A DNA stretch of 18,181 nucleotides from a virus (Duplodnaviria > Heunggongvirae > Uroviricota > Caudoviricetes): the IMG/VR virus record IMGVR_UViG_2869953405_000003; one strand, written 5' to 3'. Of the stretch, positions 40 through 18,181 are shown one piece after another. Numbering within the stretch: the stretch's first letter is position 1; the number at the start of each line of letters is the position of its first letter. Under the pieces are notes generated by a model. That model saw only the letters and a list, made by a program, of their open reading frames with translations, did no database searches and had not been told where the DNA came from. Both the position numbers and the translations under genes were made by a program.

Positions 40-402
40 GGGGCTGATTCTGGATTCGACGGGATTTGCGAAACCCAAGGTGCATGCCGAGGGGCGGTTG
101 GCCTCGTAAAAAGCCGCAAAAAATAGTCGCAAACGACGAAAACTACGCTTTAGCAGCTTAATAACCTGCTTAGAGCCCTCTCTCCCTAGCCTCCGCTCTT
201 AGGACGGGGATCAAGAGAGGTCAAACCCAAAAGAGATCGCGTGGAAGCCCTGCCTGGGGTTGAAGCGTTAAAACTTAATCAGGCTAGTTTGTTAGTGGCG
301 TGTCCGTCCGCAGCTGGCAAGCGAATGTAAAGACTGACTAAGCATGTAGTACCGAGGATGTAGGAATTTCGGACGCGGGTTCAACTCCCGCCAGCTCCAC
401 CA
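40..402 (+). ncRNA. ssrA: tmRNA (SsrA), complete 363-nt gene ending in CCA
   Basis: Sequence from GGGGCTGATTCTGGATTCGAC through GGTTCAACTCCCGCCAGCTCCACCA matches the enterobacterial tmRNA as I recall it. The tag reading frame GCA AAC GAC GAA AAC TAC GCT TTA GCA GCT TAA (ANDENYALAA) lies at 129..161. Confidence 0.95.
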
Positions 403-4629: not shown

Positions 4630-5126
4630 TATTTACTCCTTGCCGGGTCATAAGCCTGCCAGGTGATCTCGCCGAGCACCGGAAGCTCGGTCTCCCCCAG
4701 GTCAATATCCGATGAAGGGACGATTAACCGGTGGGCCACTTCACCAGCAGACAAACTGATGGCCTCACTGATTCTGGACAGATACATACGCCCCTCTGGC
4801 ACACCATCCCGTAACATCAGTGCATTCAGCTCTGCTTTTATTGCAGTCCTGATCTGCGGTGTGTCTTTCGATAATGCAATCGTCATCGGGATGACTTTTT
4901 CTGTGGCACCGAATACATACAATCCGCTTCCGGCAACAGGTGCCAGAGGAAGGATGTGGTCCCTGACTGCGTTAATCACGCTTTCATCCGGGGCCGGGCG
5001 TTCCGGATCGTTTGTCGCCACCATCACGCCAACCGTTCCAGTGCCTTTCCAGTGTCTGAAAGTCCATGCACGGTTAATACCCTGAACTTCTTTCGCCCAG
5101 ATAACATAATCAGGGTCTGCGCCCCC
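4629..5126 (-). pseudogene. baseplate J-like protein (Mu gp47 family), C-terminal part, separated from its N-terminal part by IS1
   Basis: My translation from 5126 downward (GGA DPDYVIWAKEVQGINRAWTFRHWKGTGTVGVMVATNDPERP...) is in the same frame as the upstream fragment 5895..6488 once IS1 and one target-duplication copy are removed. Confidence 0.8.
5118..5126. repeat. 9-bp target-site duplication TGCGCCCCC, left copy, IS1 copy 1
   Basis: Identical 9-mer at 5118..5126 and 5895..5903 immediately flanking the IS1 ends. Confidence 0.9.
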
Positions 5127-5181
5127 GGTGATGCTGCCAACTTACTGATTTAGTGTATGATGGTGTTTTTGAGGTGCTCCA

Positions 5182-5457
5182 GTGGCTTCTGTTTCTATCA
5201 GCTGTCCCTCCTGTTCAGCTACTGACGGGGTGGTGCGTAACGGCAAAAGCACTGCCGGACATCAGCGCTATCTCTGCTCTCACTGCCGTAAAACATGGCA
5301 ACTGCAGTTCACTTACACCGCTTCTCAACCCGGTACGCACCAGAAAATCATTGATATGGCCATGAATGGCGTTGGATGCCGGGCAACTGCACGCATTATG
5401 GGCGTTGGCCTCAACACGATTTTACGTCACTTAAAAAACTCAGGCCGCAGTCGGTAA
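5182..5457 (+). CDS. insA: IS1 InsA
   Basis: 91-aa [46 protein letters not shown]..., the canonical IS1 InsA. Confidence 0.95.
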
Positions 5458-5879
5458 CCTCGCGCATACAGCCGGGCAGTGACGTCATCGTCTGCGCGGA
5501 AATGGACGAACAGTGGGGCTATGTCGGGGCTAAATCGCGCCAGCGCTGGCTGTTTTACGCGTATGACAGTCTCCGGAAGACGGTTGTTGCGCACGTATTC
5601 GGTGAACGCACTATGGCGACGCTGGGGCGTCTTATGAGCCTGCTGTCACCCTTTGACGTGGTGATATGGATGACGGATGGCTGGCCGCTGTATGAATCCC
5701 GCCTGAAGGGAAAGCTGCACGTAATCAGCAAGCGATATACGCAGCGAATTGAGCGGCATAACCTGAATCTGAGGCAGCACCTGGCACGGCTGGGACGGAA
5801 GTCGCTGTCGTTCTCAAAATCGGTGGAGCTGCATGACAAAGTCATCGGGCATTATCTGAACATAAAACACTATCAATAA
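5376..5879 (+). CDS. insB: IS1 InsB frame (expressed as the InsAB' transposase by -1 frameshift)
   Basis: 167-aa ORF in the -1 frame overlapping the insA 3' end. A6C slippery run at 5433..5438. Confidence 0.9.
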
Positions 5880-5894
5880 GTTGGAGTCATTACC

Positions 5895-5903
5895 TGCGCC
5901 CCC
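5895..5903. repeat. 9-bp target-site duplication TGCGCCCCC, right copy, IS1 copy 1
   Basis: Identical to 5118..5126. Confidence 0.9.
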
Positions 5904-6488
5904 CTGTGGAATGTAGTAATAACGTTCCATAACGCGGGCACGCCATATTTCCAGATTTTCAATATCTTCACCGTCTGTAATGGTGTCAGCGTACCCTGTG
6001 GACGGCAGACCACTGACGGGTGTTCCCAGTTGCATGGCAATACCATCATCCGTATTCCCCGCCGATCCCGGTTCGTCTGCCACAACAGGCACCCGGAGAA
6101 GACCATCGGCTGCGGTCACCGTCGCCGTCGTGGTAAAGGTCACCTGATTATCACGCTGGATCTGCGTTCCCGCTGGCAATACCGGCGTCCCCTCTACGCC
6201 ATCCCAGCGCACAAATCCCCGGGCTGCCACCGCTTCTTTTCGCGGGCAGCGTTTGATTCTGGCGTGCCGGTACAGCCAGTCTTCATCACACACGTCCGGT
6301 AACAGATTTCTGGCAAGATAATCGATATACCCGTACAACGTGTGTACGGCTGCAGCCTGTACACGGGCATACACTTCCGCATCCATACGACGAAGCAGCG
6401 TATCCTGCTCAAAGCGGGTTAATAAATCGCTCCGGATCATAGAAATAAGTTGCGGGAGGCCGGGGCGATAAAACTGACTGTCAGCCAT
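5895..6488 (-). pseudogene. baseplate J-like protein (Mu gp47 family), N-terminal part, interrupted by IS1
   Basis: The supplied 224-aa ORF (5814..6488) reads ...WRARVMERYYYIPQGGAG and then runs into the IS1 terminal sequence (GNDSNLL...). Joined to the C-terminal part it gives an intact protein of about 360 aa. Confidence 0.8.
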
Positions 6489-6891
6489 TCAGTTCACTCC
6501 AGATATCATCAAAAATAATGTTGTGAATATTGCCGTCACGCTGGTAAATGGTAATGGCAAGTGCCAGCGAGTCTGTCCCGGTCCGGACAGCGTTAATATC
6601 AAGACGGGAAGCAACACCATCCTCCACCATCCACGCCAGCGCCTCACGGACATAATCTCTGGCAAGCTGCGGGGTTTTATTTGTCAGCTTGCTGCGTCGC
6701 AACAGATACAAACGCGACCCCGTGCGATCATTCTGAACCGCAGGCCAGGTATCCCCCCACCATCCAAATATCCGTGGTGCATCATCACGCCCGGCACGCC
6801 GCCATGTAAAAAGCGAAATAATCACAGCACGCGTCAGAAGGTCGATCGAAGCCCCGGTCGACACGGGTCGCCCGTTAACATTAATCATCAT
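6481..6891 (-). CDS. Mu gp46-like baseplate protein (gp25 / P2 gpW-like)
   Basis: 136-aa ORF in the expected position between the spike and J-like genes. Start overlaps the upstream gene. Confidence 0.7.
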   Translation of the reverse strand: MMINVNGRPVSTGASIDLLTRAVIISLFTWRRAGRDDAPRIFGWWGDTWPAVQNDRTGSRLYLLRRSKLTNKTPQLARDYVREALAWMVEDGVASRLDINAVRTGTDSLALAITIYQRDGNIHNIIFDDIWSELNG

Positions 6892-6896
6892 GATTT

Positions 6897-7430
6897 TCAG
6901 CCCATCGGTTGATCCGGCGTGTCAGTGATCCCGCCACCATCACCATTTTCGGTATGTTTGTGGGCATTGTAGGCCTGCCGCATTTGCTGCATGCTGAGTC
7001 CGCCACTGTCGCAATTGTCAGTAATATCGGCGGTGGATTCGACTGGCATTTCAAAGCGCGCTTTAGGCGCGTTTTTAAAAATTATGGCCTTCCCGGCCCC
7101 GTCCACCACAATACCGGAACGGGTCAGGACAACGGACTGTCCCAGATCGTCATAAAGCGCCACTTCCCCACGTTTCAGTCCTTTCAGCCGGTAACGTCTG
7201 TCAGCCACGACCACAACCACACCATGAGAACGATCGCCCGCCGGAAATAAAGCAACGCCCTCAGCACCGTTCTGTGCGGCAGATGTAAAACCATAAGGTT
7301 CAAGGTGCTCAACGTGTTGTTTCTGATCTCCGGCTATCATTTTCAACCCTACAGACTGACACTTTCTGGCGGAATCCACCGCCGTGATGACAGCCCGGGA
7401 AATCAGATTACGAAGAGAAAACCCGTTCAT
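6897..7430 (-). CDS. baseplate assembly / spike protein (Mu gp45, P2 gpV-like)
   Basis: 177-aa ORF with a Gly-rich C-terminus, positioned after the hub gene as in Mu. Confidence 0.7.
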   Translation of the reverse strand: MNGFSLRNLISRAVITAVDSARKCQSVGLKMIAGDQKQHVEHLEPYGFTSAAQNGAEGVALFPAGDRSHGVVVVVADRRYRLKGLKRGEVALYDDLGQSVVLTRSGIVVDGAGKAIIFKNAPKARFEMPVESTADITDNCDSGGLSMQQMRQAYNAHKHTENGDGGGITDTPDQPMG

Positions 7431-8496
7431 CAGAAATCCTCCTCAACATTTTTTTCTTCCTGGCGGTAACAGGCTCGGGGAGATAAGCATCTGCCGGGCC
7501 AACCCGTAATTCAGTCGTCGTGCCCCGGTCGTCCTGGTTATAGGTAACTTCTGCGATCACCAGTTCATCATTATCAAAATTATTCAGCGGGTCGAAAACG
7601 ATGACAGATAACCCCGGACGCCATAACGCGCCACTGCCCTGCCGCCAGCCCTGAACCGTATATGTTGTCTCACGGGTAAGCGCAGCCCGTTGGCGCGCTT
7701 CAAATTCACAACGGGCCTTACAGGTTGCTGTCGTTGCTGTGCCTGACTGCTGAATCAACAAAGGGCGATAACGGGTCACGCCACTGTCCTGAATGGTCTG
7801 ACGTATTGCGGCAATGGTGGCCTCACCAAAATCATCGTCGTTGCCCGGGCGCTGCCCACTGACCTGATATTCAGAAAACCGCTCTCTGATGCTTCTTTCC
7901 GTGTCACAGGAAAGAATATTCTCTCCCAGCACCAGCACCAGCACCAGCGCCGTCGCCGCTTTACCTGTTCCGGGTTTTCCCAGAACCAGTCGCCCGCATT
8001 CATCGTCATAAGCCAGCGTCTGAACCTGCCCCAGTAACCGGTTAAGACAATCGGCAACGGTTTCGCCGTGTTCCGGCTGGGCATCAATCACCGCTGTCTG
8101 CGGCACGCCAGCATCAACAACGGTGATGCCAAATGGCGCAGCCAGTTCACTGACTATTCTGAGCAGGTTTTTTCCGCTCTGCTGGAGTGGCAAAGCAGAG
8201 CAGTCAACCAGATCGGCTGTTTTGCTTCGCCCGACAATTCCCATGCTGACGCTGCTGGCGTCATAACGAAGCGGTAGTGCCTCCACATATCCGGTGAGCA
8301 CAGGCTCATCCCCGATAAGCACTTCAACCAGCTCACCATTTTTTATCCGGGGTTGATAATCCCGGCTTCCGGGCCAGCGGGTGGTAATGGCAACATTAAA
8401 ATCCCGGGCAATACGGTTAATGCCCGCACTGATACGGACGGATGTCCAGCCGCCCCATTCGCGACCGGAAACCCGAAGTAAAACGGTATCATTCAT
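7408..8496 (-). CDS. baseplate hub / tail protein (Mu gp44, P2 gpD-like)
   Basis: 362-aa ORF. ATGA start/stop overlap with the N-like gene. Size and position match Mu gp44. Confidence 0.7.
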   Translation of the reverse strand: MNDTVLLRVSGREWGGWTSVRISAGINRIARDFNVAITTRWPGSRDYQPRIKNGELVEVLIGDEPVLTGYVEALPLRYDASSVSMGIVGRSKTADLVDCSALPLQQSGKNLLRIVSELAAPFGITVVDAGVPQTAVIDAQPEHGETVADCLNRLLGQVQTLAYDDECGRLVLGKPGTGKAATALVLVLVLGENILSCDTERSIRERFSEYQVSGQRPGNDDDFGEATIAAIRQTIQDSGVTRYRPLLIQQSGTATTATCKARCEFEARQRAALTRETTYTVQGWRQGSGALWRPGLSVIVFDPLNNFDNDELVIAEVTYNQDDRGTTTELRVGPADAYLPEPVTARKKKMLRRISDERVFSS

Positions 8497-9884
8497 CTGA
8501 CGGGTACCCTTAATGCCCTGACCGGAACAAAGCCCGGATGAGAGATGGCATTTCGATCCAGGATATCAGTTTCACGGGACGCATCGTCGTACCATGACGC
8601 AGCCAGAACAAGCGCAGGCAGAACTTCCGCTGGCGTTCGCTCTGCGGTTTCCTCCGTCTGAACCAGACGCGCCTGAATATCCCGGTTCAGTTCTGTACGT
8701 AATGACGTCAGCTGAAAAAACAGCCTGTCATCCGCCGTACGCCTGAGCTCCTGTTCAATCGCCGCGTTCAGCGATTTGCGTATGATGGTGAGATTTTCCC
8801 GCGTGGGTGGTTGCGCTCTCTCATCCTGTCCTGTGCTGGCTGCCACGCTGTCAAGTGCCGGATGAGAAACGTGAATAATATCGGACTGACGTTCAGTGGA
8901 ACCACCAACAGCCACAACCGCCTGCTGATTTTTCACCAGGCTTCCGGGTTGTGGCAGTGAAGTGACCGCCCTTGTGGCTTCGCTGATTGCCGTCGTCCGG
9001 ATGACAGCAGCCACAAGGTTTGTCTGCTGTTTTTGCCTGATAACCGATGCGGAATCTGTGGGCCACACCGCACGCGGTGCCAGTCCTGGGTCCAGCGTAA
9101 TGCCGGACATTGTCGTTATGGACTGCACCAGATCCTGTGTGTTATCCACCAGCCGGGTTCCGGCCCGCCAGGTATCCTGCAACGTATGCACAAAATCACT
9201 GGCAACCGACGGCGGCATCAGAATGACGGATAAATCGCCCTGCAGTAGTCTCGCTCCGGCAGAAACAGCCGAATTAACCATTTTGAAAGCTGTCTGAACG
9301 GTTCCCAGCATATCGGTCGTCCGGGCAATAACATCGTTCTGAATAAAGTCCGGTATTCCCGCGAGATCAAAATCGCCGAACATGTCTTCAATCAACTCAT
9401 CCAGGAATACGGACGACTCCTCCAGTTTTCTGGCGGTTGCAGCTCCGGCGACCGGAAATGACAGTTCCCCGCTCTCAACAAACTGAAATGAAACCCGGCA
9501 CATACGGCCTTCAGTGCCGGAGTGAGAAACGGTCACCTGCCCGTCAATACAGCCCTGCATTTCACCGAACTGCGGATGGATCAGCGTCCCCGGCCCGGCG
9601 GTTTCAATCGCTGTAATCAGCCTGTCGCGCTGCTCTGCGTAATCATCACCAACGAGATACGCATTAATCGTCAGCCGTCGCGTGGCACGCCCGAGATCTT
9701 CCGTGTACGGTTTGTCACGGTTTGGGTATTCATGGACCTGAACGCGGCGTCCGAACGAACCCTCGTCGCTCTCCACCGAAAACGGAACGCCACGAAATGA
9801 AGCGTCGTAAAGATTATCGCGCCAATTGATACCTGAAGATGCAGAAAAGAGTGAAGAAAGAGAAGGTAAAGAAGGTAAGTCCAT
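8493..9884 (-). CDS. DNA circularisation protein N-like tail protein (Mu gp43 family)
   Basis: 463-aa ORF. GGAG lies 6 nt upstream of the ATG. Size and position in the tail module match Mu N. Confidence 0.7.
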   Translation of the reverse strand: MDLPSLPSLSSLFSASSGINWRDNLYDASFRGVPFSVESDEGSFGRRVQVHEYPNRDKPYTEDLGRATRRLTINAYLVGDDYAEQRDRLITAIETAGPGTLIHPQFGEMQGCIDGQVTVSHSGTEGRMCRVSFQFVESGELSFPVAGAATARKLEESSVFLDELIEDMFGDFDLAGIPDFIQNDVIARTTDMLGTVQTAFKMVNSAVSAGARLLQGDLSVILMPPSVASDFVHTLQDTWRAGTRLVDNTQDLVQSITTMSGITLDPGLAPRAVWPTDSASVIRQKQQTNLVAAVIRTTAISEATRAVTSLPQPGSLVKNQQAVVAVGGSTERQSDIIHVSHPALDSVAASTGQDERAQPPTRENLTIIRKSLNAAIEQELRRTADDRLFFQLTSLRTELNRDIQARLVQTEETAERTPAEVLPALVLAASWYDDASRETDILDRNAISHPGFVPVRALRVPVR

Positions 9885-9898
9885 ACTGTCTCCACTAT

Positions 9899-9922
9899 AA
9901 AAAAACCGCCAATTTCTGGCGG
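9899..9922 (-). terminator. intrinsic terminator downstream of the lipoprotein moron
   Basis: On the minus strand a 6-bp GC-rich stem (CCGCCA / TGGCGG) with a 5-nt loop is followed by T7. It lies 9 nt after the moron stop codon and 15 nt before the N-like gene start. Confidence 0.55.
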
Positions 9923-9930
9923 CTTATATA

Positions 9931-10312
9931 TTAATCATCATTAATATCTTTCATATTCAATTTGCAATTTTCGTAGGTCACTCCCGACTCGCCATTAACA
10001 TTAACTCCAGCTCTGATATTCCCGTTTTCTTTTACATCTACAAAAAACTGGCCTCTTGGCATCTTGAACGCAAATGTAAAACCAACAGTATCTGAATCAA
10101 AATCATCATCTTTATATATTGGGATCAAAAATGTCATCGTCGCTGGTGATGCATTGTTTGCAAAATCAAATACACCTATACTTTTGCCGAATTCATAAGA
10201 AGCTTTTCTCAATATAATCGCACCGCTGGCAGAAGGGGATGGGCACGATATCCTCAGTTGTCTGAATCCATCTGTATCCAAGTCAACGTCATTATCTGCA
10301 GATGTTTTAACG
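9931..10312 (-). pseudogene. AT-rich putative lipoprotein moron, C-terminal part (interrupted by IS1)
   Basis: The supplied 131-aa ORF (9931..10326) begins inside the IS1 end, and its frame is continuous with the upstream fragment 11081..11190 once IS1 and one duplication copy are removed. About 33% G+C in a hand-counted 100-bp sample against about 53% in a nearby phage gene. Confidence 0.6.
10304..10312. repeat. 9-bp target-site duplication GTTTTAACG, copy flanking IS1 copy 2
   Basis: Identical 9-mer at 10304..10312 and 11081..11089 immediately flanking the IS1 ends. Confidence 0.9.
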
Positions 10313-10327
10313 GGTAATGACTCCAAC

Positions 10328-10831
10328 TTATTGATAGTGTTTTATGTTCAGATAATGCCCGATGACTTTGTCATGCAGCTCCACCGATTTTGAGAACGAC
10401 AGCGACTTCCGTCCCAGCCGTGCCAGGTGCTGCCTCAGATTCAGGTTATGCCGCTCAATTCGCTGCGTATATCGCTTGCTGATTACGTGCAGCTTTCCCT
10501 TCAGGCGGGATTCATACAGCGGCCAGCCATCCGTCATCCATATCACCACGTCAAAGGGTGACAGCAGGCTCATAAGACGCCCCAGCGTCGCCATAGTGCG
10601 TTCACCGAATACGTGCGCAACAACCGTCTTCCGGAGACTGTCATACGCGTAAAACAGCCAGCGCTGGCGCGATTTAGCCCCGACATAGCCCCACTGTTCG
10701 TCCATTTCCGCGCAGACGATGACGTCACTGCCCGGCTGTATGCGCGAGGTTACCGACTGCGGCCTGAGTTTTTTAAGTGACGTAAAATCGTGTTGAGGCC
10801 AACGCCCATAATGCGTGCAGTTGCCCGGCAT
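10328..10831 (-). CDS. insB: IS1 InsB frame
   Basis: 167-aa ORF identical to the copy 1 InsB translation. Confidence 0.9.
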
Positions 10832-11025
10832 CCAACGCCATTCATGGCCATATCAATGATTTTCTGGTGCGTACCGGGTTGAGAAGCGGTGTAAGTGAAC
10901 TGCAGTTGCCATGTTTTACGGCAGTGAGAGCAGAGATAGCGCTGATGTCCGGCAGTGCTTTTGCCGTTACGCACCACCCCGTCAGTAGCTGAACAGGAGG
11001 GACAGCTGATAGAAACAGAAGCCAC
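10750..11025 (-). CDS. insA: IS1 InsA
   Basis: 91-aa ORF identical to the copy 1 InsA translation. Confidence 0.95.
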
Positions 11026-11080
11026 TGGAGCACCTCAAAAACACCATCATACACTAAATCAGTAAGTTGGCAGCATCACC

Positions 11081-11089
11081 GTTTTAACG
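11081..11089. repeat. 9-bp target-site duplication GTTTTAACG, second copy, IS1 copy 2
   Basis: Identical to 10304..10312. Confidence 0.9.
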
Positions 11090-11190
11090 TTACTAATAAA
11101 TCGTGAAACAATCTCCTCATTTGTTAGTATTTTCGCCTGAGCACAGCAAGAGGTTAATATTGCAACCGTCATTAAAAATGGCTTTATCAC
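11081..11190 (-). pseudogene. AT-rich putative lipoprotein moron, N-terminal part with signal peptide and lipobox
   Basis: My translation from GTG at 11190..11188 (GGAG 8 nt upstream) gives MIKPFLMTVAILTSCCAQAKILTNEEIVSRFISNVKT, with an L-T-S-C lipobox after a hydrophobic stretch. An alternative ATG start lies at 11172. The frame continues into 9931..10312 across the IS1 insertion. Confidence 0.5.
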
Positions 11191-11257
11191 AAAACAAACT
11201 CCATTGTTAGCATGTTACGCGATAATTTTGCCTCATCTTTCACCACAAAAAAAGAAC

Positions 11258-13207
11258 TCACCTTTTAAATGGAGAATACCCAACATCATGGGTGATTTTC
11301 ATAAAGGGATCGCCTGTTTTCGGCAAATCGATAACGCGCATTCCAGGCGGCGCGTTGTCAAACGTCACCTTAAGTTCGCTGCGGGTTGCCGGTGAAGATG
11401 CAAGGCTTAACAGCTGATTCCTTTCCAGTGATACATTCGGGGTGTAGCGTTTATCGGGAGATAAATACCCATCACCACGTGGCATCTGCCATCCGGTCAT
11501 GTCATAGACAAAATCATGGAACTGTTTGCCCCACTCGTCGAACTTATCATTCAGACCAAATCCACTGTTCAGTGCATCAGCCACAAAATTTTTAACAAGC
11601 CAGGGATGTGCTTTTTCAAACTCCTGCGCCATCATGCCCAGTTCAAGCAATCCACCAATCAGACTGATCTTTCCGAGGCCCTTTAATTTCAGCCCTGTTT
11701 TTCCTGCCGCCGTTGTCCATTGATTCTGGGCGACTGTTGCCGCACGAATACTTGCCACCGCCTTCACACCAATATACAGGGCAGAAACCGTTGCTATTGT
11801 TTTTACTGCCTGTTCCCATCCCCCCATTGCTCTGACAACCTGATCAACCTCCTGCCAGACTTTTTTCACAACCGGACCGACCGTTTCCCAGTTATCAATT
11901 ATGAGATATGCACCACCGACGAGAAGCGCAATTAATCCCTTTGCCGGCGTCATATTCATCACGCTACCCATGATTTTTGTTATGCGTGTCAATGTGCCAA
12001 TCGCCACGCCCATCGTCAGTAATGCCGCACCAGTTTTCGCGATGGTTTTTACGACCTCAGGATTTTCTCTGACAAACGTGCGCACTTCTTCCAGAAAAGG
12101 CTTCATCTCTTTTATGCCTTCATTGAGTGAAGGCAGGAAGGTTTCCCCCAGCGTGGAAGAAATCGCATTGATCTGGTTCTGCAGCAGCAACAACTGATTT
12201 TCTGTCGTCGCGGCACGGGCGGCATATTCTTTCTGCATTGAGCCGCCATACTGCTGCGCATCCGCCACACGATTAAAGTTGGTTCGCAACAAATCCAGAT
12301 TCGTGAGCAGCGGCGCAATGGCCCCCAGGGATTCCTTCCCGAACAGCGCTTTCAGCACAGCAGCCTGTTTTTCTTTCGGCACTTTTGCCAGAGAATCCAG
12401 TACGTGCAGCATGGCCCCGCGGGCGTCTTTCTGCATATCCGCCGCCAGTTTTTTCGGGCTAATGCGCAACGAGCGGAGCACTTTTTTCTGCGATTTGGTG
12501 GCAGAATCCCTCGCTGTCAGCGACAACATAAAATTCTTTATCCCCGTCGCAGCAATTTCTGACTCCACCCCCATTCCGGCAATGGTTGCCCCCATTGCGG
12601 CAATCTCTCCGGAGGCCACACCCGCAACACTGCCTAAAGGGCCAATACGGGTCACAACATCAGAAATCTTTTTCGCACTTGCAGGACCGGTATTACCAAG
12701 ATAGTTAATCTTATCCGCAAGCCCTGCCACCTCTCCCTGTGTCAGTTTAAAGGCAGTGCGCCACTGCGCCATCATCTGACCGGATTCTTCTGCCGTGGTG
12801 TCAAAGGCCACGCCCATCTTCACGGCATCGTCAGTAAACTGCATCAGCTCGTCACGGGCGATACCAGCCTGACCACCCGCCGCCACAATTTCGGCGATAC
12901 CTTCCGCCGACATGGGCAGTTCTGTTGACAGGTCGCGCACCTGCTCCGTCATTGCCTTAAACGCTTCCGGCGTATCCAGACCATCCACCACTTTCCGGAC
13001 ATCCGCCATTTTTGATTCAAGGGCAATGGCAGATTTGACCGGGAGCGCCAGCGCCCCCAGTACTGCGGTTCCGGCACCCGCTGCGCCCAGTAACAGGCTG
13101 GCAAACTCCTTTTTAAAACCTTTCAGCTGGCGCTGCATTCCCTTCAGCGGTGCCGATACCTTATCCACGGCAGTGATGATCGCCTTCAGCTGAAAACTGT
13201 CAGCCAT
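11258..13207 (-). CDS. tail tape measure protein
   Basis: 649-aa ORF, Ala/Gly-rich with long predicted helical stretches, immediately downstream of the tail chaperone gene. ATG at 13207 follows the chaperone frameshift extension. Confidence 0.8.
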   Translation of the reverse strand: MADSFQLKAIITAVDKVSAPLKGMQRQLKGFKKEFASLLLGAAGAGTAVLGALALPVKSAIALESKMADVRKVVDGLDTPEAFKAMTEQVRDLSTELPMSAEGIAEIVAAGGQAGIARDELMQFTDDAVKMGVAFDTTAEESGQMMAQWRTAFKLTQGEVAGLADKINYLGNTGPASAKKISDVVTRIGPLGSVAGVASGEIAAMGATIAGMGVESEIAATGIKNFMLSLTARDSATKSQKKVLRSLRISPKKLAADMQKDARGAMLHVLDSLAKVPKEKQAAVLKALFGKESLGAIAPLLTNLDLLRTNFNRVADAQQYGGSMQKEYAARAATTENQLLLLQNQINAISSTLGETFLPSLNEGIKEMKPFLEEVRTFVRENPEVVKTIAKTGAALLTMGVAIGTLTRITKIMGSVMNMTPAKGLIALLVGGAYLIIDNWETVGPVVKKVWQEVDQVVRAMGGWEQAVKTIATVSALYIGVKAVASIRAATVAQNQWTTAAGKTGLKLKGLGKISLIGGLLELGMMAQEFEKAHPWLVKNFVADALNSGFGLNDKFDEWGKQFHDFVYDMTGWQMPRGDGYLSPDKRYTPNVSLERNQLLSLASSPATRSELKVTFDNAPPGMRVIDLPKTGDPFMKITHDVGYSPFKR

Positions 13208-13364
13208 GCTTCATCTCCTCGTTAATGCGGACGGCCTCGGCTTCCAGTTCTGTAAACTGCGAAACAGCCCCCCGTCGCAGCTCCAGTGGATTCAGTTTCC
13301 AGAACCAGGCAACATTGTAGAGTCGTTTCCGGAGGTGCTTCCCGTCTCCGACTGGGTAAAAAAA
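13200..13364 (-). other. predicted -1 programmed frameshift extension of the tail assembly chaperone (lambda G/GT-like)
   Basis: T TTT TTT slippery heptamer at 13364..13358 lies in the zero frame of the chaperone (codons CGT TTT TTT = R F F). The -1 frame is open for 55 codons (YPVGDGKHLRKRLYNVAWFWKLNPLELRRGAVSQFTELEAEAVRINEEMKHG) and stops at 13202..13200, overlapping the tape-measure ATG. Confidence 0.55.
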
Positions 13365-13627
13365 CGCAGGATCTGCATGCTGGTCTTAAAAATATCCAGT
13401 TTTGCCATCTGCGCCGCCGATGAACGCGGGATCCCCGCCAGCAACGGGATATATTTCAGTGCCACCTGGCTGTCCAGTTTAATACTGCCTTCACCGGAAA
13501 TAATGAAAGGAAAACCCAGCGCCTCGATTTCGTCATACGTGGGCTCGCGCAACTCCAGCACATGCAGCATTTCGTTATGCGCTGTCACCGGTTTTTTTAA
13601 AACTATTTCTGTAACGTTCATTGCCAT
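13292..13627 (-). CDS. tail assembly chaperone (Mu gp41-like)
   Basis: 111-aa ORF between the tube and tape-measure genes. One-nucleotide overlap with the tube gene stop. Confidence 0.65.
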   Translation of the reverse strand: MAMNVTEIVLKKPVTAHNEMLHVLELREPTYDEIEALGFPFIISGEGSIKLDSQVALKYIPLLAGIPRSSAAQMAKLDIFKTSMQILRFFTQSETGSTSGNDSTMLPGSGN

Positions 13628-13983
13628 TACTGATACCCTCCCTCTTCGCCGTGGAATTCAAGATCTGCCGTGCCTTCTTCGGCATTATGATTAGCCTCTC
13701 CGTGCAGCCATGCCGCCGAAAGCACATACACCATGCCGTTTGCCAGCTCAGCGGTAATCGTCATCTGGTCTGAGGTGGTAATTTTGTCGACCGGAAAGTT
13801 TTTGGGCACTTTAAACGTGCCCTTAACGTAAGGTGACCGCCAGGTCTCCTTGTAATCCACATCCCCTGCCATGCCGACGATGTCATCCCGGACATTGGTG
13901 TTCATCGGCACTTCAATGCCACCTGTCAGCGATAACTGCTGACCATCCACTTTAAAAAAACAGGTTCCGGCGATCTTTGCCAT
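13627..13983 (-). CDS. tail tube protein (Mu M-like)
   Basis: 118-aa ORF immediately downstream of the sheath gene with a one-nucleotide overlap. Size matches contractile-tail tube proteins. Confidence 0.75.
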   Translation of the reverse strand: MAKIAGTCFFKVDGQQLSLTGGIEVPMNTNVRDDIVGMAGDVDYKETWRSPYVKGTFKVPKNFPVDKITTSDQMTITAELANGMVYVLSAAWLHGEANHNAEEGTADLEFHGEEGGYQ

Positions 13984-15479
13984 TATGCTGACTCCTCTGA
14001 ATACTGAAGACGGAACTGGTTAACCACCGCAAAGACACGTAACTGATTAACATAATCCGGCGGGAACAGCGTATTCAGTCGGTTCGGGTTATCTGCATCA
14101 CGCTCAACTATCAGATACTGTTTAAACAGATCGTAATTTTCCACAATACCGGCACGCTCCATCTGACGATATGTCGCCAGAAGTTCCCCTTTGATAACGG
14201 CAGGAGTGACAATCGCCTGCCCCGGACCAAAACGGGTACCATCATTTGCCAGCTTGTGACGTCCGTACTTGCTTGTGATGACCGATTTCAGTTTGCGAAG
14301 AACATATGCACTGGTATGCAGAGTTTCACTGTCCAGATAGCTGTTGTCTGCCACGCCATACGCATTCTTTTTGTAGGTGGTTACGGAACGCTGGATCTGC
14401 AACGTGCCGCCTTCCACATAAGCCGTCGCCACGCCGTGAGATAAAAGGGTCTGCTGCTCTGTCATGATGAATCGCTTACCTTTCGGTGCCGGAAGCATCC
14501 CCACCAGCTCCCCCGTCTGTGTCGGACGGGCAGGATCATTCCGGATAAATACCGCTTCACGGGCAAGGCGACTGGCAACCAGTTCATCGACAGGCGACTG
14601 GGTTTCTTTTTCGTAACCGGCAAGCGTGATATGTTGCTGATTATGCATATCTCCGGCACCAACCAGCTCTGACAGCGTTCCCAGTTTTGCGGTATAGCCA
14701 TGCCCGTATAACTGGCGCGCATAACTCCAGCGACCGCTGCTGTCATTCATTTCGGTCATCATCATATTGATGGAGGCGGCATCGTTGAACGGCAGACCGA
14801 TAAAGTCGAATGCCTCATCGCCCATAGCAGCAACAGCGGCGGTAAGATCAGGCGCTCCGCTACCGGCAGCACCGACTTCCGTCACCACCCGAAGCCCTGC
14901 TGGCAGAATCTCACCACCACCAGAACCATAATAATTCAGACAGACCGGTAACTCATTACCATACAGCCCCTTATGACGGGCAGTCAGCGTCACCACACCT
15001 GCATCAGATGACGCCGTAAACGGCAGGGTGATAACCCCGTTTACCGCTTCCTTAATCGCGGTGGCAACCGCAGTGGCATCATCGCCATTCACCACAGGCA
15101 CCTGTACACGGGAGCGCCCGACATACAGACTCAGGGTGCCGCTTTCCTCTGCTTCTCCGGCAACCGTCACCCTGACCGTCGCCGCCGCCCCTCTGGCTTC
15201 CGGTACTGCAATAACATACAGTTCACCGAAAGGATCTGTCTGACGGTAGACTTCCACCATACGCGCCAGCTGGCTCCCCGCCCCACAAATCTGGCGGGCA
15301 TAATCTGCCGATGGCATCAGCACCAGGCTGTTAACCTCAATGGCTGCATCGTTGCTGGCATGCCCGATCAGTAATGCAGGCGCGCTGGTCACCGCTGTAT
15401 TTGCCGCAGAATTGTTCATCTCGGCGTAGAACAACGGCACCAGCGTATTCGACGGAACAGTATTAAAACTTATCGTCAT
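13983..15479 (-). CDS. tail sheath protein (Mu L-like)
   Basis: 498-aa ORF, the largest structural gene before the tube gene. Size and position match Mu-type sheath proteins. The start ATG is 19 nt from the IS600-like element end. Confidence 0.8.
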   Translation of the reverse strand: MTISFNTVPSNTLVPLFYAEMNNSAANTAVTSAPALLIGHASNDAAIEVNSLVLMPSADYARQICGAGSQLARMVEVYRQTDPFGELYVIAVPEARGAAATVRVTVAGEAEESGTLSLYVGRSRVQVPVVNGDDATAVATAIKEAVNGVITLPFTASSDAGVVTLTARHKGLYGNELPVCLNYYGSGGGEILPAGLRVVTEVGAAGSGAPDLTAAVAAMGDEAFDFIGLPFNDAASINMMMTEMNDSSGRWSYARQLYGHGYTAKLGTLSELVGAGDMHNQQHITLAGYEKETQSPVDELVASRLAREAVFIRNDPARPTQTGELVGMLPAPKGKRFIMTEQQTLLSHGVATAYVEGGTLQIQRSVTTYKKNAYGVADNSYLDSETLHTSAYVLRKLKSVITSKYGRHKLANDGTRFGPGQAIVTPAVIKGELLATYRQMERAGIVENYDLFKQYLIVERDADNPNRLNTLFPPDYVNQLRVFAVVNQFRLQYSEESA

Positions 15480-15541
15480 GATTTTTTAGCCTTATCCTTG
15501 AGGTGTACTGGCAATAGCGGACACTACCATTTGTTCTTTTT

Positions 15542-16360
15542 TTAAGCAGCCATCTGATGATATTTTTCCCTGAAGGCTGCCGGGGAGATATTCCCCAGAC
15601 GAGAGTGACGACGCTGACGATTGTAGAAAATCTCAATGTATTCCCGTATTACTGAGATGGCTTCATCCCGGTTATTAAAACGATAGTGGCTCAGGCTCTC
15701 ATTTTTCAGCGTTCCCCAGAAGCTTTCCATCGGAGCGTTGTCGTAACAGTTACCTTTACGCGACATTGATGTTTTCAGACCAGACTGCTCCTGTATGACC
15801 CGGTAATCGTATGCGCAGTACTGTGAACCTCGATCAGAGTGGTGGATTAGCCCGGCAGGTGGGCGCTGGCTCCTGAGCGCCATAAACAGGGCTTTACCTG
15901 TCAGCTCTTTTGTCATGCGCTCTCCCATGGCGTAGCCGACAATTTCGCACGTATAAACATCTTTGATGCCAGCGAGGTACAACCATCCCTCCTGTGTGGC
16001 AACATACGTCAGGTCCGCCACCCAGACCTGATTTGGTGCTGTAGGAGCGAACGTCTGGTTCAGCAGATTTGGCGCAACTGGCAGATTGTGGTTCGAGTTC
16101 GTAGTCGCTCTGAACTTGCGTTTCTGCTTACAGCGTAGCCTTAGCTCCTTACGAAGACGTGCCAGTCGGTCACGACCAACGATGATGCCATTCTCTGCCA
16201 GCTCCGTCTGGTGCCGCCGGGTTCCATATGTTTCGCGAGTGCGGATATGTGCCACCTTAATCTCCAGTTTTAGCCGCTCATCACTTTGTTTTCTGTCTGA
16301 GGGTTCATGCTGTACCCAGTTGTAATAACCGCTCCTGGATACACCAAATACCTGACACAT
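15542..16360 (-). CDS. IS3-family transposase OrfB (DDE integrase domain)
   Basis: 272-aa ORF with the usual IS3-family OrfB layout, including ...HHSDRGSQY... and ...YDNAPMESFWGTLK... motifs. Confidence 0.9.
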   Translation of the reverse strand: MCQVFGVSRSGYYNWVQHEPSDRKQSDERLKLEIKVAHIRTRETYGTRRHQTELAENGIIVGRDRLARLRKELRLRCKQKRKFRATTNSNHNLPVAPNLLNQTFAPTAPNQVWVADLTYVATQEGWLYLAGIKDVYTCEIVGYAMGERMTKELTGKALFMALRSQRPPAGLIHHSDRGSQYCAYDYRVIQEQSGLKTSMSRKGNCYDNAPMESFWGTLKNESLSHYRFNNRDEAISVIREYIEIFYNRQRRHSRLGNISPAAFREKYHQMAA

Positions 16361-16409
16361 CGCTTCAATGGGAAATTGTTGTCGCCATTGTTCGATTAAC
16401 GCGTATTTT

Positions 16410-16697
16410 TCAGCGACTCCTGTGCAAAATACGCTGTTGCTTTTTTAATATATCTCGCTCAAGGCGAGCTTCATTTAACGCCTTACGCAGTTGCAGAATT
16501 TCAGATTCCAGTTCAGCCACCGTGCGGGAACCAGGAGTACCGAGCCCTTTTCTGGCGGCGGTAACCCATTGTCCTAAAGTGCCTTCAGGAAGAGATAATC
16601 GGGAAGCGCCTTCACTGATCGAAAGTTGATTTTCAAGAACCGTTCTGACAGCTTCGGCTTTGAACTCTTTAGAGTAACGTTGGGTTTTTCTGCTCAT
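16410..16697 (-). CDS. IS3-family transposase OrfA (helix-turn-helix / leucine zipper), C-terminus altered
   Basis: 95-aa ORF MSRKTQRYSKEFKAEAV... ending ILKKQQRILHRSR. The expected family C-terminus ATAYFAQESLKNTR is encoded in the -1 frame immediately after the A6G heptamer at 16446..16440. Confidence 0.85.
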   Translation of the reverse strand: MSRKTQRYSKEFKAEAVRTVLENQLSISEGASRLSLPEGTLGQWVTAARKGLGTPGSRTVAELESEILQLRKALNEARLERDILKKQQRILHRSR

Positions 16698-16758
16698 TAT
16701 TAGCTCCTTCTGATGCCATTCTATTTCAGGAAGGAGCGTCCGTTAAACTCAGGCTACC

Positions 16759-17157
16759 TCAGTCTTTCAGGACGTACCCAATAGAAAGGCCGGTTAACGA
16801 ACCGGCCTTCATGTGTGCATGTGCACGTTTTGCGAGGGGATCATCATCAATAAGCAACCGTCCCCTGACGTAAAGCCCGACATCGTCTTCCTTCATTTCG
16901 GTGTAAACACCGATGGGTTCATCCATGCGGTGCTGCCAGAGCAGCGCAGGTAACGCTTTTCTGTCACTCCACGCCCGCAGGGAAGCAGCAAATGCCCCGG
17001 ACATCACCACATCATCGTGGCTGTCCTTTACACCAAAGACGGAGCCATACCCTTCAAACTCACCGGAGTCACTGACAGATTTCAGACTCAGCGGTACATC
17101 AAGACGTTGTTTCGTCTGCATTGGCGTTATCCTTCTGCTTACCGGCCTTACTGCCAT
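16759..17157 (-). pseudogene. prohead maturation protease (HK97-type), C-terminally truncated by the IS600-like element
   Basis: 132-aa ORF with the motif layout EGYGSVFGVKDSHDDVVMSGAFAASL...LWQH...GLSIGY as I recall it for this protease family. Its stop codon TGA is the first three bases of the IS inverted repeat (16761..16759). Confidence 0.7.
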
Positions 17158-17211: not shown

Positions 17212-18181
17212 TAATGCCAGTCAGTTAAGCAACTGACTGGCTCTTTTTCGGGGCTGTGGGGTATTTCCAGGGCCTCTCCTTTACCACTCTCGGGAAGGCC
17301 CTTTCCCTTCTCGTCGGTAATTTCACAAGTTGTCCCATACTTGCAAGATCGCGCATCAGCTCCGGTATACGTCCCGGTGAAGCGCCCTGCAATGTCATCA
17401 GCATTCTCATCACCATTCCGCATGATTCTGAGAAACTCAGTTGATTCGGCCAGTAACCTTTCAGATGTTCCGCCATTTTAATCATCTGATATCTCACCAG
17501 ATTATAAGCCAGTAAGACACCCCACAGCTCTTGCTCCACAAGCTCCGGCTTTTTACTTCTCAGCGTCAGCCTGCTCAGTTGCATCGTCTGTTTTATCTCC
17601 CTGTATCCCAGTTCGATTTCCCAGCGATGACTGTACAGATCCGCCATTTCTCCTCCGGGGAAGCGCATGGCGTCCGTCATCGACGTCAGCAGATGGCAGA
17701 CTTTTCCTTTGCGCGTCACGGTCAGCAGGCGGGCTGTCACTTCATTTCCCAGTCCCGGCCACTTTTTTCGTGCCTGCGGGCTGGTTTTCAGCTTCACCAG
17801 ATGATCGCCTTTACCCAGTTTTCTGAGCTCTTCATATTGCGCTCCCTTTCTGAGAGGTATCATCCAGTGGCGGTGTTCTCCCGCCAGGCTCCAGGCATTT
17901 AACAGTCCCAGTGAGTAATAACCTTTATCCATTAACGTCAGAGTGTTATCGCCGGTTTGTTCTATAAGTTGCTCAGCAAGCTCATTTTCGCTGTTCTTCA
18001 TCGTGCCGAAGGCTGCAGCCGTCAGCAGATGGCTGGTCAGTTCCATCTGGCAGACCATTTTGACCTGCGGGTAGAGCGCCGGGTTCCCGGCATGTGTCTG
18101 GCGGGGGAAGGCTGCATCGTTCTCTGGTGTATCCGGTGTGCGCCAGAACACACCATCGATGGCCAGCAGGGCAGGCCGCAC
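17212..18181 (-). mobile_element. IS4, partial (runs off the window edge); inner boundary approximate
   Basis: Contains the C-terminal 318 aa of an IS4-type transposase. A perfect 11-bp inverted repeat GCCAGTCAGTT / AACTGACTGGC at 17216..17241 overlaps the stop codon. The boundary near 17212 is inferred, not verified. Confidence 0.7.
17225..18181 (-). CDS. IS4 transposase, N-terminally truncated by the window edge
   Basis: 318-aa partial ORF ...[49 protein letters not shown]..., recognised from memory as IS4-family. Confidence 0.85.

Follow-up and report, generated by a model that had tools for sequence, protein, structure and literature searches.

Temperate phages carry genes that change their host in morons, among them genes for exclusion, defence and virulence. 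In the definition of Juhala and Hendrix, a moron is extra DNA of deviant base composition that has its own promoter and terminator and is expressed from the prophage (PMC3594210). The gp15 moron of HK97 adjoins the tape-measure gene and excludes the entry of phage DNA (PMC3594210), and T5 Llp and phi80 Cor are phage lipoproteins near tail genes that attach to the phage's own outer-membrane receptor from its periplasmic side and block re-adsorption and superinfection (PMC3594210). Here we analysed an 18,181-nt stretch of viral DNA (IMG/VR record IMGVR_UViG_2869953405_000003; hereafter the window), and in particular the interval between its tail tape-measure gene and its Mu N-like gene. This interval holds an optional cassette, consisting of a ribosome-binding site, a 160-codon gene and a terminator, in a phiP27-type prophage. 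Prophages of this type combine an HK97-type head with a Mu-type contractile tail. The gene is very probably a moron encoding an exported protein, and on balance, with modest confidence, we favour an optional, AT-rich moron cassette of family PHROG 5586 whose exported product has a protective role in the envelope. The copy in the window is a dead pseudogene, disrupted by insertion sequence 1 (IS1), so that function has to be studied in intact alleles elsewhere.

The interval measures 1373 bp and holds IS1, the interrupted open reading frame (ORF) and the terminator; the genes there all lie on the minus strand. In the direction of transcription its parts and neighbours are as follows.

11258-13207, minus strand: tail tape-measure gene, 649 aa, upstream neighbour of the cassette (Pfam PhageMin_Tail, E = 1.4e-44; 97.8% amino acid identity to phiP27 L47)
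11191-11257, minus strand: 67-nt spacer from the tape-measure stop to the moron start, with the ribosome-binding site GGAG at 11202-11199 (from the sequence)
11081-11190, minus strand: 5′ fragment of the moron ORF with its GTG start, codons 1-37, encoding the predicted signal peptide MIKPFLMTVAILTS, the lipobox Cys15 and an AQA↓K site (reconstruction, translation and pattern tests)
10313-11080, minus strand: IS1, 768 bp, oriented as the tail genes, with insA at 10750-11025 and insB at 10328-10831 (terminal sequences and length)
10304-10312 and 11081-11089, no strand: two perfect copies of the 9-bp target duplication GTTTTAACG, the second being the last 9 nt of the 5′ fragment (from the sequence)
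9931-10312, minus strand: 3′ fragment of the moron ORF, codons 34-160 and TAA, encoding the predicted helix and 8-stranded beta-barrel with the conserved Cys57 and Cys150 (reconstruction)
9896-9925, minus strand: intrinsic terminator of the cassette, stem GCCGCCA/UGGCGG followed by U7, 11 nt upstream of the N start codon (terminator scan and RNA fold)
8493-9884, minus strand: Mu N-like 'DNA circularisation' tail gene, 463 aa, downstream neighbour (Pfam DNA_circ_N, E = 3e-36; 95.7% amino acid identity to phiP27 L48)

The inserted element has every hallmark of IS1, namely the length of 768 bp, the termini, both insA and insB and a 9-bp target duplication, and it is 98-99.5% identical to annotated IS1 of E. 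coli K-12 and of phage records. Deletion of 10313-11089 in silico produced a single ORF of 483 nt, encoding 160 aa, from a GTG at 11190-11188 to a TAA at 9933-9931. An earlier annotation made from the letters alone (the sequence-only reading) had proposed an ORF of about 160 aa at this position, split by IS1 about 35 codons in and probably inactive; the reconstruction confirms all three points and places the insertion in codons 34-37. It had also assigned the gene its own ribosome-binding site, which we find 8 nt 5′ of the start, with the start codon now corrected from ATG to GTG. The foreign base composition, first noticed as 33% G+C in a 100-bp sample, extends over the whole ORF, which has 36.6% G+C versus 52.1% in the tape-measure gene and 54.6% in the N gene.

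A terminator belonging to the cassette had likewise been proposed, 9 nt after the stop. The terminator itself is well supported: the hairpin at 9925-9903, followed by a U run, folds with -14 kcal/mol (z = -3.7), and none of 200 shuffled sequences folded as well. The spacing required revision, since the stem as called by the scan starts 5 nt past the moron stop and its G+C core lies ~7-8 nt past it. A consensus scan of the spacer and the 3′ end of the tape-measure gene for sigma-70 promoters found no site in the window allele, in the 720R4 allele or in locus L065; matches in loci L043 and L096 were at chance level. An Rfam scan of the interval returned no RNA family.

We compared the junction with that of related phages and prophages. 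In phiP27, whose flanks are about 96-98% identical to the window, only 15 nt lie between the tape-measure and N genes. An uninterrupted copy of the gene, as had been suggested should be sought in relatives, is present in E. coli FDAARGOS_944 with flanks 100% identical to the window. This copy (WP_000594909.1, 'hypothetical protein') sits between genes annotated as 'phage tail tape measure protein' and 'DNA circularization protein'. A survey of 5426 complete E. coli genomes found the gene in 112, of which 11 have the window allele, intact, at 95% identity or more and 101 have an allele of ~66% nucleotide (50% amino acid) identity. Forty of these complete genomes have an empty phiP27-like junction, and the IS1-disrupted form was found in none of the 5426. 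In the IMG/VR database we surveyed 80 loci encoding N homologues, 4 of them uninformative, and a junction of 39 nt or less was taken as empty. Of the 76 informative junctions, 61 are empty, 14 hold a member of PHROG 5586 and 1 (L043) holds an unrelated gene. The filled loci represent four divergent tail lineages, with N identities to the window of 96-100%, ~67%, ~59% and 57%. The 720R4-type lineage is polymorphic as well: L106-L117, all in the IMG/VR sample, are empty, and L016-L035, from a separate locus set, are filled.

Across at least five tail-module lineages, this junction occurs both with and without a family member. All members found in tail modules are positioned exactly between the tape-measure gene and N, all have 34-38% G+C, and each has its own terminator-like hairpin. 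A core tail gene is ruled out by the empty-site relatives, that is, by phiP27, the 40 complete genomes and the 61 IMG/VR loci. Three of the four features that define a moron are present: extra DNA missing from the same position in close relatives, a deviant base composition and an own terminator; an own promoter is the fourth, and none was detected by the scan. The description of the gene as a moron, made in the sequence-only reading, is thus retained. What does not hold is the picture of a single foreign insertion; the cassette is instead a recurrent optional resident of the junction across several lineages.

Two further observations concern the occupants of this junction. E. coli UMNF18 (NZ_AGTD01000001.1) and STEC316 (NZ_CP041431.1) each have two phiP27-type prophages, one filled and one empty. 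In L043 (IMGVR_UViG_2189573020_000003) the junction holds other cargo at 1920-2375, an AT-rich ORF of 151 aa with 35.6% G+C. Its predicted product has a canonical lipoprotein signal, MKKALIILSCLFCLAGC↓D (LAGC↓D, with Asp at +2), the ORF is preceded by the ribosome-binding site AGGAGG, and its terminator AAACCGCCAGAATCGGCGGTTTTTTT is nearly identical to that of the window cassette. The L043 ORF had no family match and no match in the complete E. coli genomes.

The reconstructed protein matched PHROG 5586 over its full length (E = 9.7e-89, residues 1-160 against positions 1-161 of the 161-position profile). By sequence it belongs to this already catalogued family and not to Llp, Cor, Bor or MliC/PliC. 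PHROG 5586 is without functional annotation, and the assignment names the protein but does not explain it. No match was found in Pfam, even at E ≤ 10, or in NCBIfam or PADLOC, and literature searches on the accession, the PHROG identifier and the junction returned no paper on the family. The earlier statement that the mature sequence was not recognizable as anything familiar therefore stands as far as function is concerned. The family is tiny: a set of 5.8 billion proteins contains 9-16 clusters of it, and one of 1.84 billion contains 18 representatives. Its named sources are restricted to Enterobacterales (E. coli, Shigella, Yersinia and Pantoea), and the carriers include Shigella, Shiga toxin-producing E. 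coli, enterotoxigenic E. coli, avian pathogenic E. coli, sequence type 131 and Yersinia.

Every homologue with an intact N-terminus that we examined has a hydrophobic N-terminal signal with either an A-x-A↓K site or a lipobox, and in each homologue examined the mature part contains two cysteines and no more, C57 and C150. A lipoprotein signal had been claimed for the gene. In the window allele this claim is borne out: MIKPFLMTVAILTS-C15, with the lipobox L12-T13-S14-C15, K3 and the h-region FLMTVAIL, matched the PROSITE pattern PS51257, tested as [LVI][ASTVI][GAS]C with the Cys at residue 15-35, K or R in the first 7 residues and an uncharged h-region. As a trait of the family it is not, since a lipobox occurs only in the window (E. 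coli/Shigella) allele (L-T-S-C15-C) and the Yersinia allele (L-I-S-C-C), and the lipobox Cys is missing from the ten other homologues in the comparison, which have A-x-A↓K-type sites. Judged from these signal sequences, lipidation is not the defining property of the family. The window allele also keeps a predicted signal-peptidase-I site, AQA↓K, at residues 17-20; we consider it reasonably probable that this allele is lipidated. Taken together, the family probably consists of exported two-cysteine, 8-stranded beta-barrels that are lipid-anchored in a minority of alleles.

The fold was modelled with AlphaFold2 (predicted local distance difference test score (pLDDT) 84.9, predicted template modelling score 0.77). 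The model has a helix at residues 24-41, eight strands and a short C-terminal helix, and the predicted fold is a helix followed by an 8-stranded up-and-down beta-barrel. Foldseek searches against PDB and BFVD gave nothing at E ≤ 1e-3. Sequence-profile matches in PDB to Calx-beta and Prp8 were dismissed (E ≥ 0.1). The ratio of nonsynonymous to synonymous substitution rates (dN/dS) is 0.15 at dS ~1, and the family is under purifying selection. We regard the ORF as a real gene because of its full-length homologues, this ratio and the pLDDT of the model. Other candidate relatives were rejected. The repeat proteins P0017, P0018 and P0020 matched only profile positions ~31-103, many times over, and were treated as spurious; P0017, the only one of the three whose sequence was read, is a Cys/Ser/Thr-rich repeat. 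Matches in Firmicutes from the genome scan (L006-L008) were short, 35-40% identical and without tail context, and were dismissed. In the Yersinia enterocolitica copy (L118, JBRUQM010000038.1, 4950-5459) the likely start, ATG AAA AAA CCT (MKKPIYL), is out of frame. This apparent 1-nt frameshift in the signal peptide may mean that the copy, too, is a pseudogene, or it may be an error of sequencing.

The most distant significant homologues, P0019, P0022 and P0024, are 25-28% identical and are not in tail modules. They were found with E = 2.6e-9 to 4e-5 by a profile search built without them, and P0022 matched the 720R4 allele in tblastn with E = 4e-7. Their genes (L119, 740-1270; L120, 2919-3413; L121, 1-452) lie on contigs that resemble phage-plasmids, adjoining IncFII repA, ParA, toxin-antitoxin pairs (MazEF or HigBA-like), a RecA-dependent nuclease and a CI-type repressor. 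An ordinary G+C content (49-55%), a shared AT-rich stretch on the 5′ side and a hairpin with a T run on the 3′ side are seen in two of these copies; the Pantoea copy, cut off by the contig end, has 35% G+C. The AT-rich stretch upstream in L119 and L120 reads TTATTT(T)AAATAAATATTTAAT and could be a promoter or operator. A scan of viral contigs for the P0022/P0024 branch returned nothing, and the sole return of a plasmid and phage tblastn search with P0022 was the 720R4-type allele. Since these homologues lie outside tails, the family is accessory cargo that temperate elements carry, with no mechanical tie to the tape-measure and N genes.

Movement of the cassette has left traces in three loci. 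In L096, L098 and L105 the end of the resident tape-measure gene (...YAKP or ...FAKP and a stop) is followed by a decayed, foreign tape-measure C-terminus and then by the cassette. The foreign remnants, MKITHDVSYY with a stop and NIPHDVSYPPF, lie at about 2905-2945 in L096, at the same position in L098 and at about 2040-2090 in L105, and they are recombination scars from a donor phage. Moron and N identities are also incongruent: for the 720R4 allele, moron identity is 50% and N identity 53%, and the lineage with 67% identity in N has a moron of only 36%. These sequence comparisons indicate that the cassette moves among tail modules by recombination. Nor does the moron travel with the tape-measure allele or the tail-fibre region in the phiP27-type lineage, where it assorts independently of both. 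L052 and L055 pair a ~75%-identical tape-measure protein with a 96% moron; the filled L138 and the empty phiP27 (L140) have a common fibre region; and the filled loci have at least four different tail-fibre regions. Coupling between the presence of the moron and tail-fibre type was tested for and none was seen. A terminator scan flagged the inverted repeat CACCCATGATGTTGGGTA in three lineages, in the last tape-measure codons (..THDVGY..) at window 11277-11294, L043 1835-1852 and L065 2930-2947, and this segment is kept in the recombination scars. The repeat may be no more than a reflection of the conserved peptide, or it may mark the point at which crossover usually occurs.

In the favoured explanation, the protein would be exported via Sec to the periplasm, where a disulfide between Cys57 and Cys150 would form. 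The residue after the lipobox Cys (+2) decides the sorting of a lipoprotein by Lol, with Asp set apart from other residues. In the window allele the L-T-S-C15 lipobox probably directs acylation, and sorting to the inner face of the outer membrane by Lol is expected because the +2 residue is Cys and not Asp. Most homologues would instead be released into the periplasm as soluble proteins. Late, Q-antiterminated transcription may read through the terminator of the cassette. The product would then serve in the envelope of the lysogen or of the infected cell and guard it against attack from outside, the leading candidate being that an incoming phage is stopped at a periplasmic step. We rank a periplasmic block of entry first because of the HK97 gp15 precedent, the predicted location in the periplasm and not on the cell surface, and the independence from receptor-binding genes. 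As a specific role, exclusion of entry or of superinfection is argued by analogy, and we put it forward tentatively, as a possibility that falls short of an even chance.

Superinfection exclusion by HK97 gp15 was reportedly described by Cumby et al. in 2012. Like gp15, the gene described here is a small add-on of deviant composition in a tail operon, next to the tape-measure gene, missing in close relatives and with a predicted envelope product. In contrast, gp15 belongs to the YebO family and is a small protein of the inner membrane, not a predicted exported beta-barrel; it is encoded upstream of the tape-measure gene of a siphovirus and has no sequence relationship to the window protein; its promoter and its expression from the prophage have been demonstrated, while the promoter scan detected none for the window moron. 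P1 Sim, a larger protein of a phage-plasmid, is a superinfection-immunity protein that is processed by removal of a signal peptide, resides in the periplasm and blocks entry after adsorption. By description and as an analogy only, it would represent the soluble periplasmic mode that most PHROG 5586 members are expected to use.

Several results weigh against the favoured explanation. No above-chance sigma-70 promoter was found upstream in any allele scanned, and the gene may be expressed only as part of the late tail operon. The lipobox is missing from most of the family, and the window allele retains a competing predicted signal-peptidase-I site. The co-residence of filled and empty prophages in UMNF18 and STEC316 does not favour a strong exclusion of phiP27-type phage. 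None of the family or fold searches gave a match with a functional label. Finally, dN/dS within alleles is 0.2-0.7, higher than in the family comparison, and the values of 0.5-0.7 among these are compatible with relaxed constraint.

Among the other roles that we considered, a lysogenic-conversion factor that would act for the bacterium in an animal host, as a calycin-like ligand-binding or surface protein (cf. lambda Bor and Blc), survives best, and we nevertheless judge it unlikely. Barrels of the predicted fold class (lipocalin, avidin, fatty-acid-binding and hemophilin-like) typically have small ligands, the gene is carried by enteric pathogens and by commensals, and such factors are often encoded by morons (PMC3594210). 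However, the protein has no similarity to known virulence families, the gene is rare in E. coli (the 112 genomes given above), and it has been repeatedly lost or disrupted in Shigella. Lambda Bor/Iss, which confers serum resistance, is comparable in being encoded by a prophage moron for an outer-membrane lipoprotein with its own transcription signals. It differs in size and in genome position, and the window protein gave no match to Pfam Lambda_Bor even at E ≤ 10.

Somewhat less probable again is a periplasmic inhibitor or immunity protein directed against a peptidoglycan hydrolase or envelope toxin, like PliC/MliC, T4 Spackle or type VI immunity proteins, whose targets would be phage tail lysins, host lysozyme or bacterial effectors. 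Membership in MliC/PliC (PF09864) was considered, prompted by an SASG motif shared with MliC and by the fold class, and was rejected with a profile-profile probability of 0.04 and no Pfam match. The window protein is ~60 residues longer than MliC/PliC and has an extra N-terminal helix, and the MliC motifs SxSGAxY and TKG are not conserved.

At the same low level we place a helper of the late lytic cycle, which would be exported along with expression of the tail operon and condition the envelope prior to lysis, either by stopping injection into debris or by modulating lysis. Such a role would agree with the negative promoter scan and with the position of the gene within the late tail operon, whose orientation it shares. 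It fits poorly with close relatives such as phiP27, which are without the gene, with the phage-plasmid homologues, which are separate units, and with the own terminator, which would be pointless in a simple member of an operon.

A receptor-masking outer-membrane lipoprotein of the Llp/Cor type, the role of T5 Llp and phi80 Cor introduced above, is more doubtful still. The sequence-only reading had cited Llp, Cor and Bor as precedents. Llp and the FhuA-blocking Cor of phi80 and N15 are indeed alike in being phage-encoded, in having a lipobox and in their predicted sorting to the outer membrane, for which the window allele qualifies by its lipobox with a non-Asp residue at +2. Both are much smaller than the window moron protein. 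As relatives these proteins have to be given up: there was no Pfam match and no fold match, most family members are not lipoproteins, and Llp, Cor and Bor remain analogies only. Furthermore, Llp and Cor are functionally matched to the receptor-binding protein of their phage, whereas here the lipobox is rare, the gene is not adjacent to receptor-binding genes and its occurrence does not follow tail-fibre type, a point against a receptor-matched role. The distant homologues in phage-plasmid maintenance regions, remote from tail genes, count against it as well. Receptor masking thus seems less likely than periplasmic exclusion.

A structural or assembly component of the tail (an unannotated core gene), or an o-spanin-like outer-membrane lysis lipoprotein, has the location between two tail genes and the lipobox in its favour but is barely credible, given the presence/absence polymorphism among tail modules at least 96% identical, a predicted cleavable export signal that would be incompatible with virion assembly in the cytoplasm, a predicted 145-aa barrel unlike the short, proline-rich o-spanins and the distance from lysis genes.

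A broader version of the periplasmic exclusion favoured above can also be formulated. In it, the tape-measure/N junction would be a dedicated exchange site for envelope cargo, and PHROG 5586 a new periplasmic class of proteins against phages or other attack on the envelope, soluble or lipid-anchored beta-barrels that would intercept the incoming tail tip or tape-measure protein in the periplasm; phage-plasmids would use them too, beside their toxin-antitoxin and partition genes. We regard this version as speculative and rather doubtful. Exported moron proteins without a known family are nevertheless good candidates for new mechanisms of phage resistance at the level of the envelope, and the clean presence or absence of the gene in near-identical prophages makes natural isogenic comparisons possible. 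For specialists, interest lies in the recurrent junction polymorphism over several lineages, in the second, unrelated lipoprotein cargo and in the switch between lipobox and signal-peptidase-I site within one family. None of these points is very surprising, and the locus is a fairly ordinary example of a moron.

The prophage in the window is a heavily eroded, Shigella-type remnant in which insertion sequences have accumulated. Outside the cassette and its neighbours the following features were found.

5127-5894, orientation opposite to that of the first IS1: second IS1, with the duplication TGCGCCCCC at 5118-5126 and 5895-5903, in the region of the baseplate J (gp47-like) gene
~15499-16700: IS3-family element, orfA 16410-16697 and orfB 15542-16360, abutting the tail-sheath region
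16759-17157: prohead-protease fragment, after the IS3-family element
17225-18181: transposase gene of the IS4 family (DDE_Tnp_1), continuing past the right end of the window
40-402, plus strand: complete ssrA (transfer-messenger RNA; Rfam RF00023, 295.8 bits), beside the end of the tail-fibre region

The tail module holds two copies of IS1 and was therefore disrupted at least twice. Both insertions are also present in IMGVR_UViG_2874968258_000001, which matches window 4928-15311 at 99.9% identity. Between its sheath region and its prohead-protease fragment, the window is missing head-tail connector and capsid genes that the related prophage L001 has. L001 itself has copies of ISEc60 in its sheath and portal genes. 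Prophages and islands classically integrate at ssrA; on the equivalent side, L001 has ipaH and a methyltransferase gene instead.

Decay of the same prophage was also observed in another Shigella lineage. In Shigella flexneri SFBU1023 (L004, about 6480-7330) and in L005 the moron is intact and N is missing, with an IS1-like element at the start of N; the element in L004 is 91% identical to the window IS1. L004 and L005 represent an independent route of decay. Truncated or chimeric versions of the moron protein, 56-100 aa in length (P0007, P0010 and P0029), come from Shigella flexneri and S. sonnei where the source is named, which suggests repeated, independent disruption of the gene in Shigella.

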